Below, in pieces: positions 16,048 through 56,825 of a stretch of DNA of 64,000 nucleotides. The DNA lies in NCBI GenBank assembly GCA_013239625.1, contig MU053810.1, forward strand, positions 4,186,071 to 4,250,070, read 5' to 3'. Origin of the DNA: Lama guanicoe. Its lineage: Eukaryota. A program made the position numbers and the translations under genes. The notes beneath the pieces were generated by a model that had not been told where the DNA came from, searched no databases, and saw only the letters and a list, made by a program, of their open reading frames with translations. The number at the start of each line of letters is the position of its first letter. Position 1 is the first letter of the stretch.

Positions 16048-18182
<2,135 letters not shown>

Positions 18183-21100
18183 CAGAAATCTTAGATCTTA
18201 AACTCATACTTTCACTTTCAACTCCGCCTTTCCAACCTAATTATTCTAACCCTCCTTGTCTCACTGACAAACATTTTTCCCTGCAAGACCCAGCTCCCAA
18301 GTGCCCTCATCTGTAAATTCTCCCCTAATTACTGCTCACTCTTCCTTCCTCCCTGGTCCCCTCGGAGTGAACCCCTCCCCGATGTCTCCTGTACACTGGT
18401 AGTGACTGGCCCTACTGGTTGTCCTCTCTGCTGAGCTGTGAGAGCCCAGAGAGGGGTGGACGGGTCATTAGTCTTCAATCTGCAGGGTACCATGCGGGGC
18501 TTGGTGTTGGCTAAAGCAAAAAAAAAAAAAAAAAAGAATGATTAACACAGGGTTAAGGCAAGGTGTGTGTACTGAGGACAATCAGGTCAAAAAAAGAGAC
18601 AGAAATGGGGGAAGTTGCCCAGAAGGACCCCCAAAAGAAAAGAATCTCACCCTTAATGAATCTTCTCTGTTCTAAAAGGAAACCAGGTGACTATTCACAG
18701 TGGCCTTCCTGCTGCCCCAGTAAGGGATCTCTTTAGACTGAAAACTTACTAGAACTCCCAGTTTCACCTGTTCTGACCAGGAACCTTCCCCGCGTTTTCC
18801 CAGATGGTCTCACAGACAGACTCCCCCTCCTTTTTTCATTATGAACTTCTGCGGATCTTGTTGGATCCTGTGCTCATGACAGCCTTTACCAGGCACAATG
18901 GAGGCCCGGGGAGGCTGCTGCCTCCATATTGTCCCCCACCCCTCTCTTCCACCTTCATCCTTGATGTCCACAGGTCTCCAGGATAAAGTGTCCCTCCTCT
19001 TCTGACTCTGCCCTGCCAGCTTCTCTTTGGGGCCTTTTAATTTTGACTTTCAACTTGTGAAATTTCTAAATGCTCCTCTTTTTTTTTTTTTTTTCTCTCA
19101 CGTTTCCTTAATCCTGGGGCATCTTCTGAGAGAAGGAGTTGTTACATCCATTGTAACATTTCCTACAATGTATGTTGTTTTTTTGTGTGTTCGTGAGCCT
19201 TGCAGATTTTTTCCATTTGTGAGCCTCAATCAGTGGATTTAATAGCTACATTAAGAGGAAAGATAAAATCAAAGGAAAGGGAATTTTAAAATACCATTGC
19301 CAAGTGATTTAAAACCACCAAATTATCAAAACAATAATTAAATATAAACTGCATTTCATCCTCATTGTACAAACACACAGGCAAATCACAGGCTGTGTAG
19401 CCATTGGGACTGGTCCTCTTGATCTGGAGATCTGCAGCTGTACCCCCTCCGTAGCTCCACGCAGATCCTTCTAGGCCCAGCTGCCTCCGGCTGTGGCCCA
19501 GTTTCTTTCCTGAGCTGCAGAGCAAACGAAACAAAAAGTTTGGAAATGAAGATAGCTTAGATCCTGGGAGCTGACTAGGAGAAATTAAAATCTTGATGAA
19601 ATCCTAGGAACCCAAAGGGGAAAAAAAATGTAAATATCTGTGGCTGTTCGTAACCACCGGTCTTTTGCCATGAGCCAGGGAATTAAGACTCCTGGTTTAG
19701 TCTCTGAAATTCTTTCCCAGTGGCCATATCATCTCATCCAAGCCTCTTCATCTCTGTCACCTTCAGTGATCCTAAAGTCCCCGAGAGCACTGAAAGTCAA
19801 TTCTTCTGTGATCCCGTTGGTGAGAGTGTGCAGAATGTGCAATTTGGAGATGAACTTGGATGATCTTTTCTCCCCAGCGGCCTCGAGCGAGAAGTGAAGC
19901 ACTTATAACTGTTATGAATACGAAGCAACAGCCAATGAGGAAGGAAACAGAGGAGAAACGGAAAATCATCAGCCTAGACGGAGAAGATTTAATAGGTTGT
20001 TGTGGGACTAGCAATACCAGCGCGCAAAGATTGAAAGGTTGGGAGTCAGAACAAGAAGTCCGGCCATGCGGTGTGTCTCCAAGAGCCTCGTGGACTGGTT
20101 GTGAGCTGATGGCGACAGGGGCCCCAGTTCACCTCAAGTAACCATCTGTGTCTTGTGATGTTCACCGTGAGGAGCTGGTACATTGTCACGCTGATACTTC
20201 AGTTCACCTTCTAATCTCTCACACACATAATATCTTTGTCTAGCATGTGACTCTCACGTCCGCCTTAAAGTATAAGGTTAAAAAAAATAGAAAGCTATAG
20301 GGAAATAAACAGGAGTTGACGTGGATTCATATTTTGAAAAATAATACTGGGGATGCTTAAGATGCATTTGATGGATAAATATATGGTGCTGTTAGTGTTT
20401 CTTTTTGAAAGGACTGCTATCAGTTTTCGGATTATCATTGTTTAATTTGGGGGAACATTTTTTCTATTTTTTTTTATTGTGGCAAAATACACATAATATA
20501 AAATTTGCTATCTTAATGGTTTTCAAGGTTACCGTTCACTGGCATTAAGTATGTTCGTATTGTTATGCAACCATCCTCCCCATCCATCTCCATAATGTTT
20601 TTCATCTTGTGAAACTAAAACTCTGTAACCATTGAACAGTAACTCCCCATGCCTTCCTCCCCCCAGTGCCTGGCAACCACCACTCTACTTCCTGTCTGAG
20701 ATTCTAACTGCTCTAAGTATCTCATATAAGTGGAATCACACAATATTTGTCTTTTTGTTTTAAACTGGCTCATTCCACTAAGTATAATGTCCTAAAGTTC
20801 ATCCATGCTGTAGCATATGGCAGAAGATCCTTCTCTTTTTAAGGCTGAATAGAATTCCATTGCATGTATATACACATTTTGTTTATTCTTTCATCCATCA
20901 GTGGACACTTGAGTTGCTCCCGTATTTTAGCTACTGTGAATAATGCAGCTATGAATATGGGTGTACAAATGTCTCTTCAAGACTCTGCTTTCAGTTCTTT
21001 GGTATATATCCAGAAGTGGGGTTGTTGGATCACAATCATATGGTAATACAATTTTAAACAGAATTATTTAATAATGCACAAGGATTCCAATTTCTACACA

Positions 21101-21570
21101 TCCATTCCAAAACTTGTTTTTTCTAAATAACAGCCTTCCTAATGAGTGTCAAGTGTTATCTTGCTATAGTTTTGATTTGCATTTCCCTAGTAATTAGTAA
21201 TCTTGAACATCTTTTTATGTAATCATGCCCAATGTATATCTTCTTTGGAGAAATGTCTTTTCAAATTCTTTGACCATTTTTTAATTAGGCTGCTTGTTGT
21301 TTTTGTTGTTGAATTTTAGGAGTTCTTTATATATTCTGGATATTAATTTCTTATTAGATATGCAATTTGGAAATACTTTGTCCCATTCTGTGGGTTGCCT
21401 TTTTGTTCTGTTGATAAAGATTTTTCCATTTTCATGAAGTCCAATTTTTAATTTTTTCTTTTGTTGCCTGTGTCTTTGGTATCCTATGTAAAAAACTCAG
21501 GGTTGTGAAGATTTTTGTTTTGTGTTTTCTTCTAAGAGTTTTATTTGTTTGTTTGCTTAAATAGTTTTGG

Positions 21571-23680
<2,110 letters not shown>

Positions 23681-52030: not shown

Positions 52031-52540
52031 GCCTTGTAGAGCCTCAAAGGGAAGTTTAGACTTTGTCATCAGAGTTTTGCTTAAGATAATGCAAGGTATG
52101 TTTGTGACAGTGTTTCACAAACTGTGAAGCACAACACAGGTGTGAGCTATTGCTCTTGCCATTACTGTGTATTTCTACCATTTTCAGTCAATTTCCTCCC
52201 ATTTTCCTCTGATTTTTTTGGACATTACAGAGCAGCCTGGGTAGAAAGGATAAAGAAGGCAAAAGATTTCTGCTGCCACAGGATTATTAAGCGATAGAGG
52301 GGCCTGGCCCGCTCCCTCCCTCCCGCCGGCAGGGCTTCAGGGGGCCAGAGGCTCTGCGGGGTGGGGGAGAGGACAGGAGGGAAGGAGAAGGGAGGGGGAC
52401 CCCCGAGTCGCCCCCTCTCACTTTGCAGGCTGATTCCTCACTAGAGAGTGGGAAGGGCAGCAGCAGCAGAGAATCCAAACCCCAAAGCTGGTATCACAAA
52501 GTACCATTTCTCCACGTTGGGGGCTCGGAGGGGACCCATC

Positions 52541-53980
52541 ATGAGCGATGTTACCATTGTGAAAGAAGCTTGGGTTCAGAAGAGGGGAAAATACATAAAA
52601 ACCTGGAGGCCAAGGTATTTCCTTTTGAAGACAGATGGCTCATTCATAGGCTATAAAGAGAAACCCCAACGTGGGAATTTACCTGATCCCCTCAACAACT
52701 TTTCAGTGGCGAAATGCCAGTTAATGAAAACAGAACGACCAAAACCAAACACATTTATTATCAGATTTCTCCGGGGAACCACTGTTACAGAGAGAACATT
52801 TCATGTAGATACTCCAGAGGAAAGGGAAGAATGGGCAGAAGCTATTCAGGCTGTAGCAGACAGACTTCAGAGGCAAGAAGAAGAGAGAGTGAGTTGTAGT
52901 CCAACTTCACAAACTGATAATACAGGGGAGGAAGAGATGGGTGCTTCTGCAACTCACCATAAAAGAAAGACAATGAGTGATTTTGACTATTTGAAACTGC
53001 TAGGTAAAGGCACTTTTGGGAGAGTTATTTTGGTTCTAGAGAAGGCAAGTGGGAAATACTATGCTATGAAGATTCTGAAGAAAGAATTTATAATTGCCAA
53101 GGATCAAGTGGCACAAACTTTAACTGAAAGCAGAGTATTAAAGGACATTAGACATCCCTTTTTAACATCCTTGAAATACTCCTTCCAGACAAAAGACCGT
53201 TTGTGTTTTGTGATGGAGTATCTTAGTGGGGGAGACCTGTTTTTCCATTTGTCGAGAGACCGGGTGTTCTCTGAGGACCACACACATTTCTATGGTGCAG
53301 AAACTCTCTCTGCCTTTGACTATCTACATTCCAGAAAGATTGTGCACCGTGATCTCAAGTTGGAGAATTTGATGCTGGATAAAGATGGCCACATAAAAAT
53401 TACAGATTTTGGATTTTGCAAAGAAGGGATCACAGATGCAGCCACCATGAATACAATCTGTGGTACACCAGAATACATGGCACCAGAGGTGTTAAAAGAT
53501 AATGACTATGGCCGAGCCGTGGATTGGTGGGGCCTTGGGGTTGTTATGTATGAAATGATGTGTGGGGAGGTGCCTTTCTACAACGAGGATCATGGGAAAC
53601 TTTTTGACCTAATTGTAATGGAAGACGTTAAATTTCCTCAAACACTCTCTTCAGATGCAAAATCATTGCTTTCAGGGCTCTTGATAAAGGATCCAAATAA
53701 ACGCCTTGGTGGAGGACCAGATGATGGAAAAGAAATTATGAGACACAGTTTCTTTTCTGGAGTAAACTGGCAAGATGTATATGATAAAAAGCTGGTACCT
53801 CCTTTTAAACCTCAAGTAACATCAGAGGCAGACACCAGATATTTTGATGAAGAATTTACAGCCCAGAATATTACAATAACACCACCTGAAAAATATGATG
53901 AGGACGGCATGGACTGCACGGACAGTGAGAGACAGCCGCAATTCCCTCATTTTTCCTACTCTGCAAGTGGCCCTGAATAG
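52541..53980 (+). CDS. AKT3: Intact 479-aa AKT3-like (PKB-gamma) Ser/Thr kinase retrogene
   Basis: ATG 52541 to TAG 53980 is 1440 nt, the same length as AKT3. PH domain, GKGTFG, K177, E196, [12 protein letters not shown]305, APE, turn motif T447 and hydrophobic motif FPHFS472Y are all present. Expression cannot be shown from sequence. Confidence 0.85.
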
Positions 53981-56770
53981 GTCTCTTACATCTGCTACTT
54001 CACCGTCATCGTAGAGTTATTACTGAAAATGATTCCTGGACATCACACCAGTCCCAGCTCTTACAGATAGCAGGAGCACCTTCAGACGCCCCAGATCAGT
54101 CCATGGTCTTCACCCCTCGCTTCCTTTCACTCACACGAGAACAAACATATACGCAAACACTCTCGACTTTTTGTTTTTGCGTGAAATTGTATCTCAGCCT
54201 AAGGACTCATGCTGTTGCTGCTACTGTCTTACTATTACAGCAACTTTAAGAGGTAATCTTACAGTCTCTGGAAGTCATGAGACCTCCGTTCATTTGTGCA
54301 CCAACTGTCATCTTCTGATCTTTTCAGCTTTTGTTTCTCCCTGACAGTGAAGGCTACATGAGATACACTGCTTCTAGGTACATTTTCTAACTTTCTAGAA
54401 GAGAAATCAAAAACTAATTAGACTAAGAAGATTTGGTTTATAATACAGAACAAGCAGTTGAAGTGTGGTCATGTGCATATGCAAAATTTTAATAAAGCAG
54501 ATCAGATCAGTGCATAAAGTAGGTATGTAGCACTGAGATCCGGCTGGAATTCATTAGGAGGCATTTGAGAGGACTGAGCAACGGTTAAGACAGAGATATA
54601 CATACATAAACTTAAATTCCTGTTGGATACCGCAGAGGAAGCCTGCTGTTCCACGCGGACGTCCAGATTCCATGGGCAGTTGTTGGCAAAGGAACACTTT
54701 CTACCAAGGAAGGAAGCATATGCACAGCAGAGTCAAGGTCACTTAAAGGGTCTGTGATACGATTTGCACCAGAGAGTATGTTCGCACCCGTGCTTGGAAA
54801 CCTTTTTCCCTTCTTGCTACTGTCACCTCTGATGGCTGAAGAATGTGGACTGGTGTTACGATCCTGCTTTTCACCAAAAGTTGTACACCAAGGTAAACAG
54901 GCGTTTGCCTTACTTGTTTTAATTTTTTTATTTTCAGTTCTATGTGAATTAGCTTTTTCTCAAATATTAAAACTTTGGCTGTTAGTTTATGATTTTGTTT
55001 ATATTGTGGTAGTATGTATTTTTTAGTGATAAGAATTGTATGTCATGTTAGCAAATGCAGCTCCAATTTACATAAAATAGACTTACTGCAGTTTATTTTG
55101 ACCCGTGTGCAAGGAATGTACCTGCCGATGAGAACCATGCACTTTTTCTCCTATATAAACAAACTTGACGAGGCTCTGAAATTGTACATACAGGTTAGAG
55201 TTTGACTTTGGGAGAAGAGATGCTGTCATTTAACCCCTTGGTGCTAAAAATGAGAAATCCCCAACTCTCCATGCCAAGGGGTTGAAACCAGTGAGTGTCA
55301 ATGTTTGCTCTTCTGAGAATGGAAGTGTGCTGACGGCCTAGCTGTATACTGTAATGAAGCAAATTGAGACCTGGATGATAAAAAATGAACTTTACTTGGC
55401 AAAATGAACACATCTCGAGTAGTTAACGAAGTGGGCAGTTAAAAGATAAAGACCTAGTGTGTTTATTCTGATCATGGTACATTTATCACTGAATTAAACC
55501 ATAAGGGAAAAAACAAGACAAGAAAGTAGACTAGATCTGTCCTGTAAGTTGCCTTGTATCCATTGTATAAAAAGGAAACATGAGAGAAAGAGAGGACAGC
55601 TGAGCTGGGCTGGTGTTCAAAGCATTCATTTCTTTAGAGGGAAAGTATGACACCATACAGTAAGCACACTGAGAGTTTGGGCTTTTTTTCCCAAATCTTA
55701 AGGTGATTTCCATGACCTTGGCCAAGGACACTTCCTAAAGACTCAAGGTAGCGTTGACCGTGCCCCAGGCTGGCTGCTCTGCACAGCCAGCTTCCCGTCC
55801 CCAGCCAGTGCCCGGGGCTCAGTCCTGAGATTCCATGAGTGTCACACAGGTGTTTTCTTGGCTTCAATCTTGAGAATTCCTTACTTTCACTCCCTGACCT
55901 CAGTCAGCTGGCGTAGAAAAACAGAAATGTGTTTAGACGAAGATTCTGAAGCTTTCCTTGTGTCTGCCCTTAGCTGAAGTTTGGGATTCTGGCAGATGGA
56001 AAGGCCTGAACCGGGAGCCACTCTCTTTGAGTACAGAGTTCCGGCTCTGCGGACTCCATCCTGTACCGAGTCTGCCCTTTGCCATGATGCAGCCATCTTG
56101 GAGGAAATGGGCCATTCCTGCTGGGATTTTCAGCAGGGCTGCTCACAGCTTTGCTTTCCACACTGACTACATAGCATTGTTCCGGTGTTTTCCATTTCCC
56201 ATTTCCATTTTCTGGCTTCTTAAAGCTGACCAGTTCTTGCAGCCGCCACTTGCCTCTCTTCGAGTCCAGAGTAAGGCCCCCCCGCTAACCGCAGGGTCTC
56301 TGCATCACACCTCAGTGTACACACTTTGCTGCTACTGTTTGTACTGTCCACAGTACAATGTCCTTACCTTGCTCCTGGTAGTGCATTACACGCAAGCATG
56401 AAAAGTAAAGGCTTTATTTCAATAAAAAGAAAACTTCTAAATTGGTAATTGAATTACCTCCCTGTAGCTTTATAGTTTGTGACATTTCTTGACCTTGCTA
56501 GTTCTTTCATTAGATCCACGCAAGATCTAGTCATCTGGTTAAGGAGTTTAAGCACATGCAACTATGAACCCAAGAAACTGTATTACTATTACTGTTGGTC
56601 ATACTAAAACTGTTTATTTCCTTAAGTATATGACCCACAAGGATGTGAAATAACTACAAGAAACTGTTTTTGTACACTGTGCATCCTTAGTATTTTTACA
56701 TGTATATGATAAGGATGCACATTATTTTCCTTCGTACAGACAGCTTAAGTAAAGCACTCTGTCAATCTGC

Positions 56771-56776
56771 AAAAAA

Positions 56777-56823
<47 letters not shown>

Positions 56824-56825
56824 AA
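56771..56825 (+). repeat. (TAAA)n microsatellite derived from the AKT3 retrocopy poly(A) tail
   Basis: A6 followed by about 12 TAAA units directly after the mRNA 3' end. Confidence 0.9.

Follow-up and report, generated by a model that had tools for sequence, protein, structure and literature searches.

The E17K substitution is the reference activating allele of the AKT kinases and causes tumours, Proteus syndrome and hemimegalencephaly; in humans we know of it only as a somatic or mosaic change. In v-akt, which derives from AKT1, the kinase was made independent of PI3K by constitutive membrane targeting, through fusion to Gag rather than through point changes in the PH domain. Among the AGC kinases, PRKACG provides an example of an intronless, messenger RNA (mRNA)-derived and lineage-restricted copy, and to our knowledge it carries no changes of an activating type. 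Here we describe an intact, intronless copy of AKT3 with a lysine at codon 17, located in a 64-kb stretch of the Lama guanicoe genome (the window; C1724:4186071-4250070 in a genome of 2.05 Gb), whose coordinates are used throughout. The copy resembles PRKACG in its origin and carries changes of the activating type. Our favoured explanation, which we hold to be a little better than an even bet, is that this locus is a fast-evolving, camelid-specific AKT3 retrogene maintained by selection, in effect a fourth AKT, whose predicted product would be less dependent on PI3K.

The human alleles with which we compared the copy were AKT1 and AKT3 E17K, together with the rarer AKT1 C77F, Q79K, L52R and D323H, which are associated with tumours and overgrowth. 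According to the available part of one study, AKT phosphorylation under low serum is raised by each of AKT1 E17K, L52R, C77F and Q79K, which also bring the PH domain fused to green fluorescent protein (GFP) to the plasma membrane when growth factors are absent and are transforming in Rat1a cells (PMC3702205). The available part of a second source lists E17-R273, K39-E322, R23/R25-E322/D323 and E85-K307 as PH-kinase contacts of the autoinhibited state, in which W80 is one of the main hydrophobic anchors packed on the N-lobe; autoinhibition is relieved by W80A and by T81Y, which give resistance to allosteric inhibitors, and E17K increases affinity for phosphatidylinositol 4,5-bisphosphate (PIP2) (PMC12724016). 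The AKT3 copy has the identical residue change at position 17 and a Phe at the C77 position that is identical to C77F; with a basic residue in place of Q79 and with W80 lost, it also parallels Q79K and the engineered W80A, respectively. In contrast to the human alleles, the changes in the copy are fixed in the germline, date from the split from Camelus or earlier, and occur together in one molecule. They also reside in a duplicate whose parent is wild type, and their effect in the retrogene background is predicted from sequence.

A processed copy of AKT3 with an open reading frame

Searches of the animal's own genome by protein, and twice by DNA, for AKT3-like loci returned one other such locus (C8876:9060006-9257173), in which 13 coding exons are spread over ~195 kb. 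All internal exon borders of this locus read AG...GT, and the joined exons encode a protein of 479 amino acids (aa) that is 100% identical, over the aligned part, to a donkey AKT3 isoform, and identical at 478/479 residues to turtle and lizard AKT3. Because of these identities we regard the locus as the parent AKT3. The spliced parent is colinear, without interruption, with positions 52423-56770 of the window, from which all introns are absent; this interval is a processed retrocopy of AKT3. Its parts, including the coding sequence (CDS) and segments derived from the untranslated regions (UTRs), are as follows:

52298..52422, + strand: GC-rich segment immediately upstream of the stretch matching the ATG exon of the parent
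52423..52540, + strand: 5'UTR-derived part, 111/118 identical to the parent exon, without gaps
52541..53980, + strand: undisrupted CDS without introns (479 codons and a TAA stop) for the PH, Pkinase and Pkinase_C domains
53981..56770, + strand: 3'UTR-derived part, with 2658 matches, 124 mismatches (4.46%) and 13 gaps relative to the parent
56771..56825, + strand: A-rich tail, what is left of a poly(A) run after decay to (AAAT)n, starting exactly where similarity to the parent ends

The CDS is identical to that of the parent at 1364/1440 bases, and its 76 differences, which comprise 59 amino-acid changes and 13 synonymous codons, include 0 indels and 0 stops. The A at position -3 of the ATG is preserved. 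The 3'UTR of the retrocopy is 95.5% identical to that of the parent and contains an AGTAAA hexamer at 56748-56753, 17 nt beyond which similarity to the parent stops. A stretch of 653 bases in the parental 3'UTR (L025) is missing from the retrocopy at window position 55517; either the parent gained it by insertion after retroposition or the copy lost it. At the other end, G+C reaches 72% over 52290-52430, with an observed/expected CpG ratio of 0.39; the single match of 52298-52422 in the animal's own genome is the window itself, and this segment may be a non-coding first exon of the parent or local DNA.

The encoded protein has the AKT/PKB architecture, with an N-terminal PH domain (PF00169, residues 7-105, E 4.4e-16) followed by the kinase domain (PF00069, residues 150-405, E 8e-77) and the AGC C-terminal tail (PF00433, residues 426-473, E 2.1e-09), each scoring above the Pfam cut-off. 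Its top PDB matches are AKT2 (E = 2.5e-234) and AKT1 (E = 2.9e-228), and mammalian and avian AKT3, at 87-88% identity, are the AKTs to which it is most similar. By architecture and catalytic residues, the predicted product is an AKT-family AGC kinase. Retrogene and parent share a length of 479 aa, the PH/Pkinase/Pkinase_C order, 420/479 residues, and every catalytic, phospho-acceptor and lipid-contact residue tested. They differ in that the retrogene lacks introns, lies on another contig and has 59 replacements, K17, F76, R78, G79 and K319 among them, whereas only 1/479 positions changed between reptiles and the parent in this genome.

Codon 17 and the interface between PH and kinase domains

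Substitutions that may bear on regulation of the predicted kinase fall at the following positions:

52589..52591, + strand: codon 17, AAA (Lys) where the parent has GAA (Glu); E17K, common to the Camelus proteins
52670..52687, + strand: PH variable loop 2, with D44R, V45G, D46N and Y49D (camel: H44, G45, D46, D49)
52766..52777, + strand: codons 76-79, with C76F, Q78R and W79G (AKT1 C77F, Q79R and W80G; camel: F76, Q78, A79)
53450..53458, + strand: activation-loop codons 304-306 compared with the parent, with K304N, T305 kept (ACG>ACA, synonymous) and F306I
53495..53497, + strand: codon 319, E319K (AKT1 E322), adjoining the kept D320/D322 pair

An earlier note on this DNA had singled out codon 17 as encoding the E17K hotspot, and its reading of the letters was borne out: the codon is AAA, in the context QKRG-K-YIK, while the aligned PDB chains of AKT1 and AKT2 have Glu. 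We aligned 127 vertebrate AKT sequences from a protein search, excluding the camel retrogene proteins; among the 124 with a residue at this position, 123/124 have Glu, 1/124 has Phe and 0 have Lys. The G>A change lies outside a CpG, as had been proposed from the AKT3 context, with the parent reading GGA GAA TAT and the retrocopy GGA AAA TAC, and with A on both sides. In the parent, codon 16 is split between exons: exon 1 supplies its first base, and exon 2 opens with GA GAA TAT. Intron read-through at the exon 1/2 junction was considered as a source of K17 and rejected, as the junction lies 3 bases upstream and the bases after it are those of exon 2. Since exon 2 sequence follows the junction, K17 is a plain point substitution.

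Two circumstances that would have undone the claim, a parent that itself carried K17 and an error in base calling, do not apply. The parent AKT3 in the same genome has E17, and base-call error is excluded because separately assembled and annotated Camelus proteins (P0004, P0122) share K17. A comparison across species, which the note had suggested, found K17 in the annotated proteins of three Camelus species. The substitutions that it had listed nearby, D44R (GAT>CGT), V45G (GTG>GGG) and D46N (GAT>AAT) at 52670-52678 and Y49D (TAT>GAT) at 52685-52687, agree exactly with the comparison to the parent. Its view that the PH domain has become less acidic holds likewise, with a net charge over residues 1-107 of 0 in the parent, +5 in the window and +2 in camel. 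The original reading can be widened, in that K17 is one of 45 substitutions held in common with Camelus and is accompanied in the window protein by the AKT1-equivalent changes C77F, Q79R, W80G and E322K.

In AKT1 numbering, the changes at activating or PH-kinase contact positions are E17K, C77F, Q79R (window only), W80G (A in camel), K307N (S in camel) and E322K. Residues C76, Q78 and W79 are each invariant in 127/127 aligned AKT sequences. Of eight positions at which substitutions are experimentally activating (E17, L52, C77, Q79, W80, T81, D323 and D325), 4/8 are replaced in the window (0.99 expected, P = 0.01) and 3/8 in camel (P = 0.06), P values that are only indicative because the lists were made after the changes had been seen.

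The lipid-binding residues K14, R23, R25, N52/N53 and R85 (AKT3 numbering) are unchanged; we take the PH head-group contacts to be K14, R23, R25, N53 and R86 in AKT1 numbering. Lys17 is thus set in a lipid-binding pocket that is otherwise intact, the combination by which an E17K-type AKT is recognized in sequence. The catalytic set is present, comprising the GKGTFGR Gly-rich loop, K177, alphaC E196, D271, N276 and D289-F-G, and the catalytic loop reads HRDLKLEN, as Y269H converted the YRD of the parent to the canonical HRD. T305, T447, S472 and FPHFSY (the FxxFSY motif) are kept, while the T-loop context changed from KTFCGT to NTICGT. Three replacements, H192Q, K304N and F306I, are located within or next to the activation segment; His-192 presumably corresponds to the histidine of alphaC by which the phosphorylated activation loop is contacted.

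The Camelus orthologue and the case for selection

In a collection of 5.8 billion sequences, the closest protein was 'RAC-gamma serine/threonine-protein kinase-like' of C. dromedarius and C. bactrianus (P0004; 475 aa, 95% identical), and the same protein cluster contains two C. ferus entries, the protein P0122 and the partial model P0123 of 255 aa. All full-length camel proteins carry K17 in the same local context as the window. Relative to the parent, 45 replacements are common to window and camel, including E17K, N21T, C76F, E319K, Y269H and F306I. Nine are private to the window (G10A, D46N, Q78R, I83T, I128T, N146S, E240D, E352G and Q470H), while camel has 4 private replacements and an in-frame deletion of 4 residues (119-122). 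Five further sites are derived in both, with different residues in window and camel: D44 (R/H), W79 (G/A), I125 (T/N), E189 (Q/L) and K304 (N/S). Sites 44, 79, 125, 189 and 304 were replaced repeatedly; by a rough estimate that assumes random later hits on already changed sites, ~2.4 such sites are expected, compared with the 5 observed. W79 and K304 are otherwise invariant in AKT sequences.

The Camelus protein is an orthologous retrogene product that shares K17, F76 and K319 with that of the window and differs from it in its length of 475 aa, in A79 versus G79 and H44 versus R44, and in having kept Q78 and D46. Among themselves the three Camelus proteins vary at 1 site, whereas 18 sites and the indel separate the window from them, which on its own points to a camelid outside Camelus as the source of the window. 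Because window and Camelus share derived residues, a single retroposition took place before the lineages split, with K17 already present, and K17 is best explained as a fixed germline state rather than a mutation in one individual. The available part of one source places the Lamini-Camelini split at ~16.3 million years ago (Ma) (PMC12337305). A metagenome scan for the gene yielded 9 loci, all <=45% identical and unrelated to the retrogene.

These observations bear on the prospect of a sequencing or assembly artefact, or of contaminating complementary DNA (cDNA) in one assembly, which we consider very remote. The locus lies inside a multi-megabase contig and has unique flanks, the same gene with K17 appears in three Camelus annotations, and the sequence is not fresh cDNA because it is 5% diverged from the parent. 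In 14 DNA sequencing runs, from three organisms and several studies, 0.76-0.85 of the words sampled from 52423-56770 were present, which likewise argues against an artefact. Six RNA runs contained 0.06-0.20 of the sampled words, where ~1/5 is expected from the 95%-identical parent mRNA alone, and are evidence neither for nor against expression.

The case for function is made by retention of the open reading frame (ORF) in two lineages, by the conservative nature of the replacements and by their non-clocklike tempo. Although the CDS has taken 76 substitutions, its 1437 bases contain 0 stops and 0 indels, and an intact ORF is retained in more than one lineage (479 aa in the window, 475 aa in Camelus). 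The Camelus ORF, whose sole indel is a multiple of three, is the part of this test that is free of ascertainment bias. When 65-76 substitutions were introduced in neutral simulations, 121-191 of 4000 CDSs (3.0-4.8%) were free of stops with start and stop codons kept, and the gap density of the 3'UTR (13 in 2782 aligned bases) predicts 4.7-6.7 indels in the CDS, with P(0) = 0.001-0.01. The 59 replacements had a mean BLOSUM62 score of +0.12, compared with -0.35 to -0.41 (standard deviation 0.21) for simulated neutral changes, an excess with P = 0.016 under one CpG model and 0.0075 under the other. In addition, 23/59 fell at AKT-variable sites compared with the 28-29% expected, a weak excess (P = 0.04-0.07).

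Since the parent protein is identical to reptile AKT3 at 478/479 residues, all replacements are placed on the retro branch. Synonymous changes have accrued on both branches and replacements only on this one, and the pairwise ratio under neutrality should therefore be below 1. We computed omega for the retro branch with the transition/transversion ratio of the UTR and an assumed synonymous share of the parent. The value was ~1.5 if all synonymous changes were assigned to the retro branch (P = 0.08-0.11), 2.2-2.3 if the parent evolved at half the retro rate (P = 0.001-0.002), and ~3 if the rates were equal (P ~2e-5). As for tempo, only 9-14/59 replacements arose in the window's lineage after the split. 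The total neutral distance from parent to retrocopy is 4.5-5.2%, and with so small a distance and a split at 16.3 Ma, the post-split share of the branch should be large, at 0.3-0.6 or more as inferred from assumed rates of 1.0-1.6e-9 per site per year. The probability of finding <=14/59 replacements after the split is 0.18 for a share of 0.30, 0.015 for 0.38 and 3e-5 for 0.5. Taken together, these results indicate that replacements probably came in an early burst and then slowed while the frame stayed intact, the course taken by a young gene that is first remodelled and later comes under constraint. It is quite likely, judging from the sequence comparisons, that the locus codes for a protein and is under selection, or was for a long time.

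That the copy is instead a processed pseudogene, with an ORF left open by luck, neutral changes and a merely coincidental match to oncogenic alleles, seems unlikely to us, but a number of results speak for it and weigh against a maintained gene. Nei-Gojobori counts relative to the parent (61 nonsynonymous changes over 1139.2 sites and 15 synonymous changes over 297.8 sites) give a nonsynonymous divergence (dN) of 0.056, a synonymous divergence (dS) of 0.052 and a pairwise dN/dS of 1.07, which is not different from 1 (Fisher P = 1.0). Simple purifying selection is therefore not seen, and the ratio is above the Ka/Ks of <0.5 relative to the parent that marks a constrained retrogene. Nor is dN significantly above the 3'UTR divergence of 4.46% (P = 0.25). 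The replacements are spread evenly, as in neutral decay (12 in the PH domain, 7 in the linker, 32 in the kinase domain and 8 in the tail), and 22/59 affect sites that are invariant in the 127 AKT sequences. The flanks held no target-site duplication, the best flank-to-flank direct match being a 9-mer located 84 to 215 bases from the candidate borders, and flank analysis detected no promoter around the retrocopy; decay of the duplication or a wrongly placed 5' border could account for its absence. The exact window protein was absent from a collection of 15 billion proteins, which listed no close relative from outside Camelus, leaving the gene unannotated there beyond that genus. Ascertainment must also be considered, as a few open retrocopies of such age are expected by chance among thousands, this locus was noticed as open, and retrocopies abound in the window, two of them broken. 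Finally, the tempo and omega arguments rest on an assumed synonymous share of the parent and an assumed neutral distance to Camelus. On the other side, a neutral CDS would seldom escape both stops (3-5%) and indels (0.1-1%), the Camelus ORF is open after independent evolution with its deletion in frame, and the replacements are more conservative than neutral ones (P = 0.0075-0.016). The nonsynonymous excess given the parent's synonymous share, a tempo that is not clocklike, and retention of 14/14 tested functional residues likewise argue against a pseudogene.

Two other retrocopies served as controls. A processed pseudogene of BECN1 at 21570-23500 (+), 30 kb upstream, differs from the exons of its parent (C5890) by 68 mismatches in 1969 aligned bases (3.5%) and, though younger and less diverged than the AKT3 copy, has two in-frame stops and a frameshift near its 3' end. 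A processed pseudogene of AKT2 (C1924:17969-19311; loci L002 and L008) is broken into several frames and still reads ERGEYIKAWRP, with E17 kept. The window also contains a retrocopy of EGLN2 (PHD1 prolyl hydroxylase) at 16300-18300 (-), 90-96% identical to its multi-exon parent on C1236. A 266-aa open frame of this copy (16644-17441) spans the whole catalytic domain and has EGLN2 as its top PDB match (E = 1e-137). Since its N-terminal part is in a different frame (17369-17884), the copy has at least one frameshift, and a small contig (C48884) carries a 702-base partial duplicate of it that is 99% identical. The three retrocopies, of EGLN2, BECN1 and AKT3, lie inside 40 kb of the window.

Predicted product and significance

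Under our favoured explanation, AKT3 mRNA would have been reverse-transcribed and inserted before the lineage of the window split from that of Camelus. An early burst of amino-acid change would have supplied 45-50 of the 59 replacements before the split, K17 among them, and the reading frame would then have been kept in both lineages. The burst appears to have spared the catalytic machinery, the phospho-acceptors T305, T447 and S472 and the phosphoinositide-binding residues, while replacing residues of the PH-kinase clamp and of lipid specificity (E17K, C76F, W79G (A in camel), E319K and K304N, with Q78R in the window's lineage). The predicted product would be an AKT that is still competent in catalysis; membrane binding by its PH domain would be easier (K17, charge +5), and the clamp that this domain places on the kinase domain would be looser. 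With membrane binding easier and the clamp looser, its activity would depend less on PI3K and phosphatidylinositol 3,4,5-trisphosphate (PIP3), and it should be insensitive to W80-dependent allosteric inhibitors. Such a product might be tolerated in the germline only if its expression were restricted or low, or if H192Q, K304N and F306I damped its output. What the sequences show directly is the anatomy of the retrocopy, the K17 state and its age, the open frame in two lineages and the substitution pattern; selection, activity, membrane behaviour and expression are inferred.

A functional retrogene could also encode a product that is not hyperactive, a reading that we doubt. The changes in and around the activation segment (H192Q, K304N, F306I, L292F and Y269H), together with the rebuilt PH surface, would then yield a weak, differently regulated or dominant-interfering AKT, for example, and with the same reservation, a membrane-resident competitor for PDK1/mTORC2 or lipids. 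A fully active germline AKT3 is expected to be harmful, the evidence for selection is identical to that for our favoured explanation, and K304N, F306I, L292F and H192Q affect sites that are invariant in all aligned AKTs. Several points weigh against a de-repressed product: H192Q, K304N and F306I could lower activity, the 31 named interface residues include 6 that are replaced compared with 3.8 expected (P = 0.17, not significant), and the list of activating positions was drawn up post hoc. In addition, camels are described as insulin resistant in the available part of one report (PMC3514880). What argues against a non-hyperactive product is retention of the catalytic Lys, the alphaC Glu, D271, N276, DFG, T305, T447 and S472, which would be unusual for a pseudokinase, and the fact that the PH-domain changes match gain-of-function rather than loss-of-function alleles.

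A literature search found no paper on a camelid AKT3 retrogene or on germline E17K, and a 2025 comparison of all camelid species contains no occurrence of 'akt' or 'retro'. The gene model is nevertheless already present in the automatic annotations of three Camelus species. In the available part of the 2012 Bactrian camel report, AKT is said to have diverged rapidly in camels, which is linked to insulin resistance (PMC3514880). The 2012 wild Bactrian camel gene set gave the C-terminal half of the retrogene product an AKT3 name, 'RAC-gamma ... isoform 1' (P0123), and one supplement of the 2012 paper has no AKT entry, leaving the rapidly evolving AKT gene unnamed there. A retrogene mistaken for the orthologue could produce the 2012 divergence signal, which we offer as a lead and not as a finding. 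A bolder version of our favoured explanation, which strikes us as improbable, holds that E17K, C77F, W80G/A and E322K (AKT1 numbering) created a constitutively membrane-prone fourth AKT without PH autoinhibition that was kept for >16 million years. The early burst would then represent adaptive rewiring of PI3K-independent signalling in some tissue, and the retrogene may underlie the 'rapid divergence' statement.

Returning to the favoured explanation, we infer a lineage-specific AKT retrogene with a remodelled autoinhibitory interface, its function and mechanism being those set out above. K17 is fixed in the copy of two camelid tribes alongside 3-4 more changes at positions where mutation activates AKT1 in experiments. 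The explanation predicts membrane localization that is reversible by K17E, signalling that is independent of PI3K inhibitors, and resistance to W80-dependent allosteric inhibitors. For comparative genomics, a fast retrogene labelled automatically as 'AKT3' or 'AKT3-like' can mimic rapid AKT evolution in camels. If the gene is unexpressed, it would be a clear example of neutral drift recreating cancer hotspot alleles; if the favoured explanation is true, it would be a natural experiment on how a de-repressed AKT can be tolerated, or used, in the germline.

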